A DNA stretch of 64,000 nucleotides, from NCBI RefSeq assembly GCF_009931435.1, contig NZ_CP043414.1. One strand, written 5' to 3'. Within the stretch, counting starts at the first letter, position 1, and each line of letters opens with the position of its first letter. The notes beneath the pieces are model-generated. The model worked only from the letters and a program-made list of their open reading frames with translations, ran no database searches and was not told the origin of the DNA. This stretch comes from Escherichia coli. Lineage in GTDB: Bacteria > Pseudomonadota > Gammaproteobacteria > Enterobacterales > Enterobacteriaceae. Both the position numbers and the translations under genes were made by a program. Shown piece after piece: positions 19,879 through 31,110 of the stretch.

Positions 19879-20628
19879 TTATGAAACATCACGAAATACA
19901 CAGGTAAGTTCTTTAGGACTTGCTTTCCATATATGGTCAAAGCCACTCGACAGCATGACTTCTATTTTTCCTTCCGGACTTTCAATTAGTAAATAGCGAT
20001 CATGGCAGTTTGTATATTTGGGATTTGTAGTGATTTGCACACTCCATTCAGGATGGATACAATGAACAAAATTACTATTTATTTTACTTCCGTTTTGGAC
20101 TGCAGCGACACCTACTGCGATTTCTGAAAATTCAATAACAAGCTCTTTTCTAGGTAGTACGGAATGAAATAAGCTGCATGTATTCTCCCAATTCTGTGCA
20201 AAGTAATTATCGCATATAATTACTTTTTTTGCATTGCAACATAGCATTTCCAGATACTTTTTTAAATATATTCTATTATCTGTAGGGCTTAATGTAACGG
20301 TAACTTGATTATTAACCATACCTTTTTTATAATGTACAAAGGGAAGTGATAAATTATCATTCTCAGTAAGGATTATTTTCAACAACGATTTAGATGCTAA
20401 AGTAACAAGATCATCATCACTTTCAGGCTGACTTGCTAACATAGATAAATATTGTCGATATTCTAACTCCGGCATCTTCAATCCTAAATTTCTTGCCTCA
20501 ATCCATTGCCTTTTGTTAGTTAAATAAGGTAGTACTAGTTTTTTATGTAATCTCTTCACCTTATTCTTATCATCCATATTTTCATATGCAACTAATAAAG
20601 ATGTATCAAGAACCATTTGATAAGACAT
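19879..20628 (-). CDS. Hypothetical 249-aa protein, third gene of the DUF262-ATPase operon (candidate effector)
   Basis: ATG at 20628 lies 4 nt after the ATPase stop with GAGG RBS inside the upstream gene; AT-rich; no motif I can assign. Confidence 0.6.
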   Translation of the reverse strand: MSYQMVLDTSLLVAYENMDDKNKVKRLHKKLVLPYLTNKRQWIEARNLGLKMPELEYRQYLSMLASQPESDDDLVTLASKSLLKIILTENDNLSLPFVHYKKGMVNNQVTVTLSPTDNRIYLKKYLEMLCCNAKKVIICDNYFAQNWENTCSLFHSVLPRKELVIEFSEIAVGVAAVQNGSKINSNFVHCIHPEWSVQITTNPKYTNCHDRYLLIESPEGKIEVMLSSGFDHIWKASPKELTCVFRDVS

Positions 20629-20632
20629 TTCT

Positions 20633-21682
20633 TTACCTCATCTTCATCAAATCATCTAAGGTTGCATCAAAAAAACCTAAAGGGAATCCCGTAACATTCT
20701 CTTGCAGATCGGTAAATTTCCCACCTTCATTAACTCTCATCGAGATAAAATCTTTATCCACATCAGGTTTATAATGTACAGAAATATCCTCAGAAGTTAT
20801 AACATCTTCATAAACCAAATACGCAAGTTTATTGATTAAATGTTCACAATGCGTTTCTACAATAATCTGGATACCCTTACTTGCTACAAATGCTAAAAAA
20901 ATTGCCAAATGAGACTGCGCTTTCGGATGCAATTGAATTTCGGGATTTTCTAGCAAAATAAGATCGCCTTTTTTTGCCATCAAACAAATAATCAAAACCT
21001 TTGCAATATAACTCATCCCAGCCCCAAGATTAAGAGGAGAAACATTTCCTTCAAGCTCTTTTAAGGTAAAAGCGACCTTAATCTGGTCACCAACTTTTTC
21101 AGTAACTAATTCAGACGTCGTTCCTGTAATCAGTTTCAACCAATAAGATAATTGATATGCAAGTGTTGTAGATTCGTGAACTTTCACCAGATATTCAGGT
21201 ACTGGCAAATGTTTCATTTTATCAAATGTTGAAAACAAGAATTCTCCTGCAACACCTACTCGACGTTCTGCGGTGGGCACAAATTCTTGTGCCCCCAAGC
21301 GGTTGGCATTCAGATAGAGCAACTCAGGTTCACTACCAGGCACTCTTGGCTCGTATTGATATCCCAGACGACTATCAATTTCGATATTTTCTGAGTTGAG
21401 CGTTAACGAATGAGAATTTTTTTCTGTATCCTGGACTGTTATAACAATAGATTTTGCGTTATTTTTTTTATTTCTAATAACAGGAAAATCAGCTAGAAAT
21501 CGGATAACTTCTTCCATACTATACTGATTAACAGAAGCGCTATTTTTAATTAGTAACATCAATGCCTGAATAACGCTGGATTTACCAGAAGAGTTAGTTC
21601 CAGTTAAAATGGTCAGTGGTGATAACACCAGACTTGTTGAGCCTAAACTTTTAAATCCTTGAATGTTAATATTTGTAAGCAT
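20633..21682 (-). CDS. P-loop ATPase (ABC/AAA_21-like), second gene of the DUF262-ATPase operon
   Basis: Walker A GTNSSGKSS near N-terminus; Walker B-like DLILLENPEIQLHP; start overlaps upstream gene by 17 nt. Confidence 0.75.
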   Translation of the reverse strand: MLTNINIQGFKSLGSTSLVLSPLTILTGTNSSGKSSVIQALMLLIKNSASVNQYSMEEVIRFLADFPVIRNKKNNAKSIVITVQDTEKNSHSLTLNSENIEIDSRLGYQYEPRVPGSEPELLYLNANRLGAQEFVPTAERRVGVAGEFLFSTFDKMKHLPVPEYLVKVHESTTLAYQLSYWLKLITGTTSELVTEKVGDQIKVAFTLKELEGNVSPLNLGAGMSYIAKVLIICLMAKKGDLILLENPEIQLHPKAQSHLAIFLAFVASKGIQIIVETHCEHLINKLAYLVYEDVITSEDISVHYKPDVDKDFISMRVNEGGKFTDLQENVTGFPLGFFDATLDDLMKMR

Positions 21683-22796
21683 TTTTAATCCTTTCCATTA
21701 TTTCCTTCGCAAAATCAAAACGCATATTTACATATTGTGTTGTATCAATTGCACCAGAAAAAATACCAATCTCATCAAAATTATACTTGTATTGTTCAAT
21801 AAGCTGTTTTAATTCAATATTTTTTGATAAAAATTCAAAACTTATCTGACTGAATACCATAACTAACACTTCGAATAATCCCATATTCACTGGTCGCCTT
21901 TTAGCACCTGATTTTGTTGAAAATCTAAATGCTTCTGAACCCAACGCTTTATAGACATTAGTCATACCAGTTATACAAGCATCTTCAACTTCTTCCAGTA
22001 ACTCATCATCAGCTTTTGTATTAATGAATTTCATCGCAGATGCTAAAAAAGCATCAATATCAGACCTAAATTCAACACCTGGCATTTGATTTGTTACAAG
22101 CAAATAAAATCCTACGAACCGCAAAACCAGATATCTGTCTCGCATACGCTCAGATTTTACGCCATTACCTGTTGCAAGCCTGAAAGACTCGTGTTCAGCG
22201 AGATCCTTAATTAACTTTGTGGCCTTGCCTTGATAAAGAGCATGCCGCATTTCCTGTTTATTTAGATTAATACCACTTCGATTTACACGCTCAAAAATAT
22301 TAAATTTCACATATTCAGGTGTTGGGGGTTGAATCACATAAGAATGTAACTGGCAATCTTCAAGCTTTGCTTGTAATAATGGAGGAATATCAGAAAATTT
22401 TTTTCCTCTCAAGTCAGGCAACATAGATAAATCAGTTAAAGAAAATTCATTGTTAACATAGCGTTTCAATGCAGATATTCGTTGTTTGCCATCAATGATT
22501 TGCCTGACACCATTTTCATCCTCAAAAAGATAAATTAATGGAATAGGAATCCCCATTAAAATAGATTCAATTAATTCTGACTGGTGTTTTCTATCCCAGA
22601 CAAGTTTACGCTGAAAATCTGGAGCAAGAACCAGTTGCCCACGAGCTTCGCGACGGAGTAATTCGAAAACACTGGATTGCTCTTTTGCAATTCGAACCTC
22701 AGTATCTGTCCCCATTTGATGCGGATGAGATGTTAACTCAAGCTCTTCTTGATCTTCGAGTTCAATGCTGTCGTTTTCTACATCCGCATTACTCAT
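21666..22796 (-). CDS. DUF262 (ParB/Srx-like) domain protein, first gene of the three-gene operon
   Basis: DUF262 motifs in order: PDFQRKLVW, IIDGKQR (DGQQR-type), NIFERVNRSGINLNKQE; acidic N-terminus; ATG at 22796. Confidence 0.8.
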   Translation of the reverse strand: MSNADVENDSIELEDQEELELTSHPHQMGTDTEVRIAKEQSSVFELLRREARGQLVLAPDFQRKLVWDRKHQSELIESILMGIPIPLIYLFEDENGVRQIIDGKQRISALKRYVNNEFSLTDLSMLPDLRGKKFSDIPPLLQAKLEDCQLHSYVIQPPTPEYVKFNIFERVNRSGINLNKQEMRHALYQGKATKLIKDLAEHESFRLATGNGVKSERMRDRYLVLRFVGFYLLVTNQMPGVEFRSDIDAFLASAMKFINTKADDELLEEVEDACITGMTNVYKALGSEAFRFSTKSGAKRRPVNMGLFEVLVMVFSQISFEFLSKNIELKQLIEQYKYNFDEIGIFSGAIDTTQYVNMRFDFAKEIMERIKNAYKY

Positions 22797-28899: not shown

Positions 28900-28980
28900 T
28901 TTAGCGCGGTGCGAATGTGCGCCAACACACCCGCACCGCTCATCACAATCCCTATTTCACGAGAATAGTAATCATGACTG
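28900..28980 (-). ncRNA. symR: Putative SymR antisense sRNA (antitoxin of SymE), approximate coordinates
   Basis: Inferred from established symE/SymR arrangement (cis-antisense RNA over the symE 5' UTR and start codon); ends not determinable by eye. Confidence 0.3.
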
Positions 28981-29315: not shown

Positions 29316-29323
29316 TACATTGA

Positions 29324-29347
29324 CCCGGTAGCGCCAGTGCTACCGGG
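29324..29347. terminator. Hairpin cccggtagc-gccagt-gctaccggg between convergent symE and the GmrSD-like gene
   Basis: 9-bp GC-rich stem followed by tattatt. Confidence 0.45.
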
Positions 29348-29361
29348 TATTATTCGCCACG

Positions 29362-31110
29362 TTATACCAACGCGCTCTCCATCTGTTTTTCAAATGCCTG
29401 ACGGATTAATCCCATAATGTAAGGAAGTTGTGCGAGGTCGCTGAAACCAATTTCTACATCGCCATTGCCCCAGCGCCCAACATTTGTCACATCTTTGGCA
29501 ATACCTTTCGGATCGACCAGTTCATGAAACTGCATATTAAGCGACAATCGCAGTCGGCTTTTTTGCGGCACAACATCAACAAAATTCGTTTCCGCTTTAA
29601 ACGCAATATAGAGCTTCAATACTTCCTGCGTGATCCCTGCGTCCAGGCGCAAAACTTCATCGCTAAGATGATCGAATAACACCCGGCTATGCGAACCATC
29701 AGCAAGAAAAGGATAATCACTCAGGCTGTAACTGGTTTTGTTTTCCGGCTGCCCCCGATAAACAGCTAAAACCTCTTCAGGAAGAGAAGGCGCTTGCCAG
29801 ACCTGAACCGCGAGATCGGCCAGACGATCGGCTCGGGCGTGAATGGCAGCTTCATCCCATTTTTCGCACTGTCCAAGACCGATATTCAAATAAAGCGGGC
29901 TATGCTTAAAGCCGTCTTCAATATCGCGTTTTTCCGCGAAAGGTCTGTCACTGTAGCGGGAGTTATAGCGCGTTAAAGTGAGATTCCCCAACGTATGCAA
30001 CAATTCTTTATGAATACGCTGCCAGTCGCTTCCCAGCTCTTCGCGCCATTTAGCCGACAAATTTTCGTTCTGCGGCATAATGTGCTCAATCGTAAACTCT
30101 TCCACGCGCTCTCTGCGTTTATTGTTTTCCAGTCGTCGTAACCAGTAACTGCGACTGCGGAAGTTATAGAGATCGCGAACTTTTAATTCCCGTTTAAATT
30201 CATCATCGTTGGGGAAACGACGATATGAAGGTAGATTCAGAAAATGTACCTGAATACTTTCCAGATAATTTTCTTTATTAATAACTTTATAAAAAGTGGC
30301 AAACGTCTTGTTAAGAGAATTTGTTGGAATCGCACATACTGCACGGCGGAAAACATAAGATTCAATTAAACGAATTATGCTCAGGAAATCTTCACGAGAC
30401 AAAACGCCATTTTTATAGTCATGATAAAGCGCCAGTAAGAAAGGATACGCCACATCGACTTTTAACTCGCGCAAATCCTGAAAAGCCGTAGCAAGCGATT
30501 TGTCACTTTCTTTTCCCAATGCCATTGCACAGTAATACTCCGCGTAGATGTGAATATCTTCAACCAGCCGATCTACGCCTTTTTCAGCAACACTCTGGCT
30601 ACGGGCATGGAGTTTAAAAGCCTCATAGACTTCATCTGTCCGAGGGATCTCCCCCGTTTTTACCGTCAGATAATGACGCATAAAACTGTCAAAATATTCG
30701 CTGTAACCTTGCTGACCAAAGGCGACTTCCATGGGTCGCCAGTGATCTTCATACAACCGGGTTTGATGCTCTGGTTCGAGACCCATCAGAATAAAATTGC
30801 GCACCAGATCGGCCTGACTTAACGCCTTACCGGTGGAGTTCATACTTTCAAAAATCAGTTGCGGATTATCCTGACCACGATTAAGCGCCACATCGACAAT
30901 TAATAACTTTGCTAACCCACGACATAAGGGGATCAAGTCATCACCGAGTTTGGCAATTTGTTCATCAAAGAAAGTAAAGTTTTCCATTATTCGATGGGAA
31001 TAGTTTTCTGGCATTGGTCTTTGTTTTATTAACGCCAGCAAACTGTCTTTATCAGTCTCGGTAAGCAGTAATTTAAATCCTTTCTCGCCGGACTCATAAG
31101 GATTGAGCAA
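29362..31110 (-). CDS. GmrSD-family-like protein (DUF262 C-terminal portion plus DUF1524/HNH), probably 5'-truncated; candidate type IV restriction remnant
   Basis: C-terminal region has EHIMPQNENLSAKWREELG (DUF1524 His-Me type); N-terminal region has only the distal DUF262 motif (IFESMNSTGKALSQADLVRNF); first in-frame codon is TTG with a stop 8 codons upstream. Confidence 0.6.
   Translation of the reverse strand: MLNPYESGEKGFKLLLTETDKDSLLALIKQRPMPENYSHRIMENFTFFDEQIAKLGDDLIPLCRGLAKLLIVDVALNRGQDNPQLIFESMNSTGKALSQADLVRNFILMGLEPEHQTRLYEDHWRPMEVAFGQQGYSEYFDSFMRHYLTVKTGEIPRTDEVYEAFKLHARSQSVAEKGVDRLVEDIHIYAEYYCAMALGKESDKSLATAFQDLRELKVDVAYPFLLALYHDYKNGVLSREDFLSIIRLIESYVFRRAVCAIPTNSLNKTFATFYKVINKENYLESIQVHFLNLPSYRRFPNDDEFKRELKVRDLYNFRSRSYWLRRLENNKRRERVEEFTIEHIMPQNENLSAKWREELGSDWQRIHKELLHTLGNLTLTRYNSRYSDRPFAEKRDIEDGFKHSPLYLNIGLGQCEKWDEAAIHARADRLADLAVQVWQAPSLPEEVLAVYRGQPENKTSYSLSDYPFLADGSHSRVLFDHLSDEVLRLDAGITQEVLKLYIAFKAETNFVDVVPQKSRLRLSLNMQFHELVDPKGIAKDVTNVGRWGNGDVEIGFSDLAQLPYIMGLIRQAFEKQMESALV

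Follow-up and report, generated by a model that had tools for sequence, protein, structure and literature searches.

GmrSD-family proteins have a (D/E)HxxP nuclease motif (PMC4437046, PMC4619093) and carry an alpha-helical linker of 200–400 residues between their domains (PMC4619093). Eco94GmrSD and EcoCT596 GmrSD are type IV enzymes encoded by prophages, with glucosyl-hmC DNA as their substrate, and GmrSD homologs replace mcrBC in the enterobacterial immigration control region (ICR) of APEC O1, UTI89, CFT073, E. coli C, O157 (Z5943m), and others (He et al. 2015, PMC4437046). These ICR homologs are listed as full-length (APECO1_2080 at 733 aa as annotated), with O157 Z5943m frameshifted (PMC4437046), and a 2025 EcoSal Plus review places GmrSD in 12% of ICR loci (PMC12707154); experimental characterization of the listed ICR homologs was not found in the literature searched. 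GmrSD-like genes are also known to associate with type I systems (PMC4619093; bioRxiv 10.1101/2024.01.29.577857), and HEC-06 and BrxU (HEC-05) are GmrSD-like single-protein defenses that reside inside Hma, BREX, and type I R-M loci (bioRxiv 10.1101/2024.01.29.577857; PMC8565348). DndI (PDB 9JFL) and SspE (PDB 6JIV/7DRS) are phosphorothioate-sensing DUF262–DUF1524 nickases (PMC11662687).

The window, the whole 64,000-nucleotide stretch of E. coli DNA analyzed here, contains a member of this family in the order btsT, yjiA, NsnC/NsnB/NsnA-like genes, hsdR, hsdM, hsdS, symE, the truncated gene, yjiS, yjiR, and rpn. Three of these genes match PADLOC NsnC/NsnB/NsnA, hsdR is of type IB (EcoAI family), and symE comes with its antisense RNA, SymR. 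The truncated gene faces symE in convergent orientation, lies two genes from hsdS, and shares the placement inside or beside an hsdM–hsdS–hsdR cluster seen for type I R-M-embedded (RloF-like) genes. The locus is the enterobacterial ICR: the gene is orthologous to the ICR gmrSD homologs and sits, as they do, between yjiS and symE–hsdSMR in place of mcrBC, a gene order shared by the 12 other E. coli genomes sampled below (L001–L003, L009–L017). The initial annotation had already placed it where K-12 has mcrBC plus remnants, and in a K-12 derivative, yjiS is indeed followed at the equivalent position by yjiT, helicase pseudogenes, and mcrCB.

Domain content of the truncated ORF

The gene and its recognizable parts are as follows.

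29362..31110, minus strand: truncated GmrSD-like ORF, 582 codons plus stop, corresponding to codons 116–697 of the ancestral 697-aa gene
30790..31044, minus strand: residual distal half of DUF262/GmrSD_N (ParB/Srx-like), with the FESMNSTG block (Pfam)
29815..30213, minus strand: complete DUF1524/GmrSD_C His-Me-finger (HNH-type) nuclease domain (Pfam)
30073..30087, minus strand: EHIMP catalytic motif, which fits the family (D/E)HxxP (sequence and alignment)
29386..29685, minus strand: C-terminal DUF5655 domain, function not assigned (Pfam)

The initial annotation described a GmrSD-like gene that opens with TTG, is closed off by an in-frame stop eight codons upstream, retains only the distal DUF262 motif, and lacks DFQR- and DGQQR-type motifs; all of these readings held. 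The Pfam GmrSD_N match covers residues 23–107 of the ORF and model positions 102–198 of 199 (E 2.8e-7), and in PADLOC the alignment to the top profile, 'Orf5' (PDLC02693; 543 positions), starts no earlier than position 104. The peptide FESMNSTGKALSQADLVRNF occupies residues 87–106. By both Pfam and PADLOC, the 582 aa do not hold a complete DUF262 domain, and the YQR and DGQQR motifs, absent from the ORF, are present in the segment deleted relative to intact alleles. A complete DUF262 domain with (I/V)(I/V)DGQQRLTT is found in the intact alleles L001, L003, and L008 and not in the window ORF.

The C-terminal half, from which a DUF1524 His-Me-finger signature had been reported, carries the complete domain (GmrSD_C/DUF1524, PF07510; residues 300–432, model positions 2–137 of 138, E 4.8e-26), and EHIMPQNENLSAKWREELG begins at residue 342. 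The (D/E)HxxP motif is followed by the downstream Asn residues of the family, and alignment with homologs shows that the ORF keeps the invariant E457, H458, P461, N463, H487, and N491 (intact-allele numbering); indeed, every invariant residue within the retained 582 codons is kept. A third domain, DUF5655, had been overlooked (residues 476–575, E 2.2e-13), and this region also matches the C-terminus of PADLOC profile PDC-S18. A literature search on DUF5655 turned up only unrelated work, and neither the intact nor the truncated protein matched an NCBIfam family. On this domain content, the window copy is best classed as a truncated derivative of a GmrSD family member, not as an intact member.

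A 378-bp deletion between two copies of an octamer

Four further features lie around the ends of the ORF.

31110..31117, minus strand: deletion junction, the one surviving copy of the octamer TTATTATT (pairwise alignment and in-silico deletion)
31111..31173, minus strand: retained 5' part of the native yjiS–gmrSD spacer, colinear with L001 3228–3291 and with L008 up to 2538
31121..31127, minus strand: Shine–Dalgarno-like AAGGAAG (read directly from the sequence)
29323..29348, no strand assigned: inverted repeat with perfect 10-bp arms (ACCCGGTAGC ... GCTACCGGGT), lying where symE and the truncated ORF converge, between their stop codons

In E. coli, each of the best full-coverage matches has 378 bp more than the window in the interval from yjiS to the ORF (megablast, 5,426 complete genomes). 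Pairwise alignment locates the break at 31110–31117, where the two alignment blocks overlap by 8 nt. Intact alleles carry the octamer TTATTATT twice, 378 bp apart (L008 2531–2538 and 2909–2916), and an in-silico deletion between the two copies in L008 reproduces the window junction exactly. Since the octamer is duplicated in intact alleles and single in the window, and the junction can be reproduced in silico, this is the signature of a single clean microhomology-mediated (slippage-type) deletion.

The deletion removed a leader of about 32 bp just before the ancestral ATG, including the ribosome-binding region, together with codons 1–115. The 5' truncation proposed for this gene is thereby borne out, and alignment with full-length homologs, the check suggested at the time, identifies the missing residues as those encoded by codons 1–115. 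The TTG 'start' is composed of the last T of the octamer and the following TG, and corresponds to Leu116 of the 697-aa protein (…RNYY-LLNPYES…). A search of the 63-bp spacer at 31111–31173 for out-of-frame remnants of the 5' end, also suggested initially, yielded none; the spacer after yjiS is unaltered native sequence, so there are no such remnants to find.

The deletion moved AAGGAAG from about 44 nt upstream of the ATG, its place in intact alleles, to 10 nt upstream of the TTG. Read as AAGGAAGTG, this Shine–Dalgarno-like site agrees with AAGGAGGTG at 8 of 9 positions, and it could permit weak translation of the truncated ORF. On the minus strand from yjiS to the ORF, a scan gave no sigma70-like promoter or terminator match, with overall counts no different from shuffles, so the scan says nothing about transcription either way. 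At the other end of the ORF, the inverted repeat at 29323..29348 is likely to form a bidirectional terminator hairpin; it has no T-run and was therefore not scored in the terminator scan.

Turning to the content of the deleted block, the intact allele matches GmrSD_N over model positions 3–198 (residues 10–222, E 7e-34, Pfam) and covers positions 1–542 of 543 of PADLOC 'Orf5'. Lost with the deletion were Pfam GmrSD_N model positions 1–101 and PADLOC Orf5 profile positions 1–103. We mapped this loss from profile coordinates and not from an AlphaFold2 model of the intact allele, in which DUF262 is largely at pLDDT <50 (shallow alignment) and the linker, nuclease, and DUF5655 are usable. The endpoint falls inside the DUF262 domain, not at a domain boundary, and the remaining half-domain would be unlikely to fold. 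The deleted segment held two nearly invariant blocks, I20-P-I-Y-Q-R-T-Y-S-W29 and I77-D-G-Q-Q-R-L-T-T85, as judged on an alignment of the intact allele with 26 homologs of 68–84% identity.

The same two conserved regions were described in the GmrS domain by Machnicka et al., who found DGQQR in nearly 100% of family members and assigned it to NTP binding and hydrolysis (PMC4619093). Substitutions in this motif of BrxU (Q101A, R102A) abolish phage resistance (PMC8565348), as do Q79A and R80A in HEC-06 (bioRxiv 10.1101/2024.01.29.577857), and in DndI (structure 9JFL) the motif for NTP hydrolysis is D83GQQR87 (PMC11662687). An N-terminal deletion mutant of any family member was not found in the literature searched.

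Conservation of the intact gene and distribution of the deletion

The intact gene belongs to a strongly conserved family. Its 120 best homologs (68–98% identity) range from Enterobacteria to Kiritimatiellota and cyanobacteria, with those in other phyla still 68–74% identical; all but three are 696–731 aa in length (117 of 120), and none has the short N-terminus of the window ORF. Widespread homologs of that short length, which the initial annotation had named as grounds for rejecting a truncation, are accordingly not seen. The homologs of about 700 aa all carry DUF262, DUF1524, and DUF5655, an architecture for which no experimental characterization was found in the searched literature. In the AlphaFold2 model of the intact allele, residues 228–444 are almost entirely helical, in agreement with the 200–400-residue helical linker of the GmrSD family. 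Five of six distant homolog loci lie within or abutting a type I R-M cluster: in four, stop and start codons overlap, and in the fifth (the P0022 allele from E. coli) the gene and hsdM are divergent; the sixth locus is a defense island, where the gene adjoins Mks-like genes. Members of this DUF262–DUF1524–DUF5655 family are often found within type I R-M operons, in translational coupling with their neighbors. Neither dnd nor ssp modification genes were present within about 10 kb of the window gene or in the distant-homolog contexts examined.

Within E. coli, the gene is present in about 1,286 of 5,426 complete genomes (megablast). From these matches, 12 genomes were fetched as an even-step sample; nine hold an intact 697-aa ORF (L001, L003, L009–L012, L015–L017), two O157:H7-type genomes carry a 1-bp frameshift (L002, L013), and L014 is interrupted by an early stop. 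Eight intact alleles compared in pairs give dN/dS values of 0.03–0.11. From these values and the nine intact ORFs, most carriers maintain a functional gene, and the inactivations, of which the window allele is one, are sporadic and independent. Across the retained part, the window is 96.3–98.3% identical in nucleotide sequence to these E. coli alleles and 99.9% identical to its closest intact allele, L008 (GCA_009820115.1).

RefSeq/PGAP splits every sampled locus into a 'DUF262 domain-containing protein' and a 387/388-aa 'GmrSD restriction endonuclease domain-containing protein', with the DUF262 piece flagged as an incomplete pseudogene at all sampled loci except those of the O157-type genomes. 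For the nine loci that hold an uninterrupted 697-aa ORF, this two-feature annotation is an artifact, and surveys of annotated proteins will miscount or misclassify an intact 697-aa defense gene.

The deleted form is rare. None of the best full-coverage matches in the 5,426 complete E. coli genomes is a one-piece (378-bp-deleted) match, a 40-mer across the junction has no match in GTDB species-representative genomes, and the exact 582-aa product occurs in only about nine near-identical contigs in the protein collection. One NCBI assembly (L005, GCA_002965045.1) is 100% identical to the window over 4.1 kb, deletion included, and the identical junction is also present in two independent SRA read-set assemblies (L006, L007). 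Because the same junction recurs in independently assembled samples, the deletion is real, and it is common to a small lineage.

L008 retains an undeleted, uninterrupted 697-aa ORF; of the 1749 nt compared, two distinguish it from the window ORF. The first is non-synonymous and, by comparison with seven further alleles, the derived state is that of L008. The second is synonymous. The truncated allele has gained at most one silent change since the split. With only 2 of 1749 nt separating it from an intact allele, the loss is very recent, with no further decay so far, though two substitutions are too few to measure selection on the truncated allele. Left of the junction, across yjiS–yjiR, identity to L008 falls to 97.1%, which points to a recombination mosaic boundary near the junction. 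L008 hsdS/hsdM is 99.8% identical to the window (all of hsdS, part of hsdM). The idea that the nuclease was lost because it clashed with methylation by the linked type I system was rejected as far as this comparison reaches, as L008 pairs near-identical hsdS/hsdM with an intact gene. L008 and the window allele form a near-isogenic pair that would serve as a ready-made test of gene function.

Interpretation and comparison with known systems

We propose that the ancestor was a 697-aa single-chain GmrSD-family defense nuclease, composed of a DUF262 ParB/Srx-like NTPase or sensor, a helical linker, DUF1524, and DUF5655. The intact protein most likely works on its own as an NTP-gated nuclease against incoming modified DNA (type IV-like), complementing the adjoining type I system; a 'self-mark sensing' mode like that of DndI/SspE may also apply. 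Slippage or illegitimate recombination between the two TTATTATT octamers eliminated 378 bp, and with them the native start, its ribosome-binding site region, and the DUF262 block that is conserved first in the sequence (YQRxYSW, IDGQQRLTT), whose motifs in relatives bind and hydrolyze the NTP that gates the nuclease. The truncated product would presumably be unable to run an NTP-gated reaction cycle, and the outcome would most likely be a loss of modified-DNA or phage restriction, leaving a fresh pseudogene whose remaining frame is still open only because the event is so recent. Taken as a whole, a recent 378-bp deletion that most likely left a dead type IV-like restriction gene is in our view a highly probable account of this locus, with loss of function suggested by the DGQQR point mutants of BrxU and HEC-06, which lose phage defense. 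Of the initial description of a 'decaying' gene, the likely inactivation stands; gradual decay does not fit a single clean deletion whose remainder is two nucleotides from an intact allele.

The other readings turn on the same observations. In a functional shortened variant, which we consider improbable, read-through from yjiS or a promoter in the spacer, followed by translation from the TTG, would give a nuclease without NTPase gating, and such a protein could have residual or constitutive nicking, dominant-negative action, or a new DUF5655-based role. The open frame of 582 codons, the intact nuclease and DUF5655 domains with all their invariant residues, the AAGGAAG placed 10 nt upstream of the TTG, the lack of a predicted terminator from yjiS to the ORF, and the fact that gene callers do call the 582-aa product are all consistent with this possibility; moreover, DndI is nuclease-active whatever its sensing state (PMC11662687), which makes an ungated nuclease conceivable. 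Against it, the best 120 homologs include no conserved short architecture, the truncated allele is limited to about nine near-identical contigs, the cut lies within DUF262 and leaves a half-domain that would be unlikely to fold, and the DGQQR point mutants of BrxU and HEC-06 abolish defense. Initiation at TTG is weak, and the scan gave no promoter-like site upstream on the minus strand. The narrower version of this reading, a 582-aa NTPase-less protein actually expressed by way of AAGGAAG and TTG, and acting through its nuclease and DUF5655 domains as an ungated or differently regulated enzyme or as a dominant-negative subunit, is marginally less probable again; if true, it would provide a natural separation-of-function allele showing the roles of the DUF262 N-terminal block and of DUF5655.

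Nor is the window locus likely to be one step in a species-wide decay of the gene in Escherichia, to which we give little weight. The independent lesions in other strains (the frameshift in L002 and L013, the early stop in L014) and the RefSeq pairing of a DUF262 pseudogene with a 387/388-aa GmrSD fragment at all sampled loci could be read in that way, but the uninterrupted 697-aa ORF at 9 of 12 sampled loci, the strong purifying selection indicated by dN/dS among intact alleles, and homologs that remain 68–74% identical across phyla argue that decay is not general across E. coli. The reverse polarity, in which the short form is ancestral and the 378 bp were inserted elsewhere, and an assembly artifact at the junction are together almost certainly wrong. 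Only the bare presence/absence polymorphism speaks for them; yet, within a domain found across several phyla, the 378 bp code for the stretch that is most conserved, the junction has one octamer copy where intact alleles have two, as expected of a deletion, and an NCBI assembly and two SRA-run assemblies made independently share the same junction. Homolog lengths, conserved residues, the octamer signature, and the independent assemblies refute this reading.

The preferred account, a recent deletion that most likely killed the gene, means that a restriction or defense gene, one of several at the locus, has just been lost from a single Escherichia lineage, which is expected biology for the ICR, a locus known for rapid turnover. 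The RefSeq mis-annotation and the tri-domain subfamily embedded in type I loci may be worth more than the truncation itself.

The closest solved structures are those of DndI and SspE (DndI: phmmer E 5e-13, Foldseek E 5e-12). Identity to these proteins is only 14–19%, however, and the window gene lacks the adjoining dnd/ssp modification genes; linkage to dndBCDE or sspABCD, which marks those systems, is not seen in the window. Eco94GmrSD shares the two-domain logic and the (D/E)H...N catalytic motif class, but the ICR homolog is about 24% identical to it (PMC4437046), resides in another genomic context, and has the extra DUF5655. Like HEC-06 and BrxU (HEC-05), the intact gene joins a DGQQR-bearing DUF262 through a helical linker to a DUF1524 with (E/D)HxxP; the PADLOC profiles for HEC-06 align with it from end to end (E about 1e-66), and HEC-06 is the second-best PADLOC family. 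The similarity to HEC-06 and BrxU is nonetheless at the family level only, with an additional C-terminal DUF5655 in the subfamily of about 700 aa, and the N-terminal block found essential by mutagenesis of HEC-06 and BrxU is the one deleted from the window ORF. The nearest relatives are the ICR GmrSD homologs APECO1_2080, UTI89_C5048, c5421, Z5943m, and EcolC_3721, which represent the same gene in the same position beside symE–hsdSMR (He et al. 2015, PMC4437046, Fig. 8; PMC12707154). The gene family at this ICR position is thus already described, and the window allele differs from its published members in being without codons 1–115 and the native start.

Intact and inactivated alleles of the GmrSD-like gene

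An uninterrupted 697-aa ORF was present in nine of the 12 sampled complete E. coli genomes, yet is annotated as a single CDS in none. In these genomes, RefSeq/PGAP splits the 697-aa ORF into two features: a pseudogene fragment annotated as "DUF262 domain-containing protein" and a 387/388-aa "GmrSD restriction endonuclease domain-containing protein". Defence-system surveys built on annotated proteins will therefore miss the gene or place it in the wrong class. Within the same sample, the gene has been separately inactivated in other lineages, including O157:H7-type genomes, in which a frameshift divides it into 294-aa and 388-aa products.

Alleles in sampled complete E. coli genomes (L numbers denote loci)
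L001 3324-5417; L003 3663-5756; L009-L012 624-2717; L015-L017 463-2556: uninterrupted 697-aa ORF
L002 3324-5416; L013 624-2716: 1-bp frameshift, O157:H7-type genomes
L014 463-2556: early stop, strain PK8275

Mosaic structure and lineage of the flanks

Comparison with L008, the closest intact allele (GCA_009820115.1), showed a boundary between mosaic segments where yjiS meets gmrSD. The window and L008 are 99.8-99.9% identical over the gene, symE, hsdS and part of hsdM, whereas identity drops to 97.1% across yjiS-yjiR (window 31111-33000 versus L008 648-2538), a pattern consistent with cassette exchange within the immigration control region. The yjiJ-yjiN/mdtM flank (window 34200-44200) shares just 90-95% identity with the great majority of complete E. 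coli genomes (4,813 of 5,390), the highest value being 98.4%, so the window derives from a lineage, or bears an allele class, that is scarce among complete genomes.

Neighboring candidate defence genes and the symE/symR module

Features in the window
19879-22796, minus strand: three co-oriented Nsn-like genes (PADLOC matches), yjiA-hsdR interval
28903-28979, minus strand: SymR antitoxin sRNA (Rfam RF01809, 88.9 bits)
29323-29348: perfect 10-bp inverted repeat with a 6-nt loop, arms ACCCGGTAGC/GCTACCGGGT

The Nsn-like genes match NsnA (E 2e-110; N-terminus with weak DUF262-like matches), NsnB (an ABC/AAA ATPase; E 1.5e-78), and NsnC (E 2e-71), and are a candidate additional defence system that shares the immigration control region with the truncated ORF. 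SymR lies antisense to the symE 5' end, and the symE/symR module adjoining this ORF thus looks intact. The inverted repeat occupies the 46-bp gap separating the convergent symE and truncated-ORF stops and is likely a bidirectional terminator.

The DUF262-DUF1524-DUF5655 family in distant taxa

Homologs of approximately 700 aa share 68-74% identity between distant phyla; our literature search turned up no experimental study of either this subfamily or DUF5655.

Distant homologs
L018, L024, L026 6001-8103; L019, L021-L023 6001-8100: ~700-aa DUF262-DUF1524-DUF5655 proteins

These genes usually lie inside hsdM/S/R operons of type I systems, where stop and start codons overlap by 4 bp, an arrangement that suggests translational coupling.
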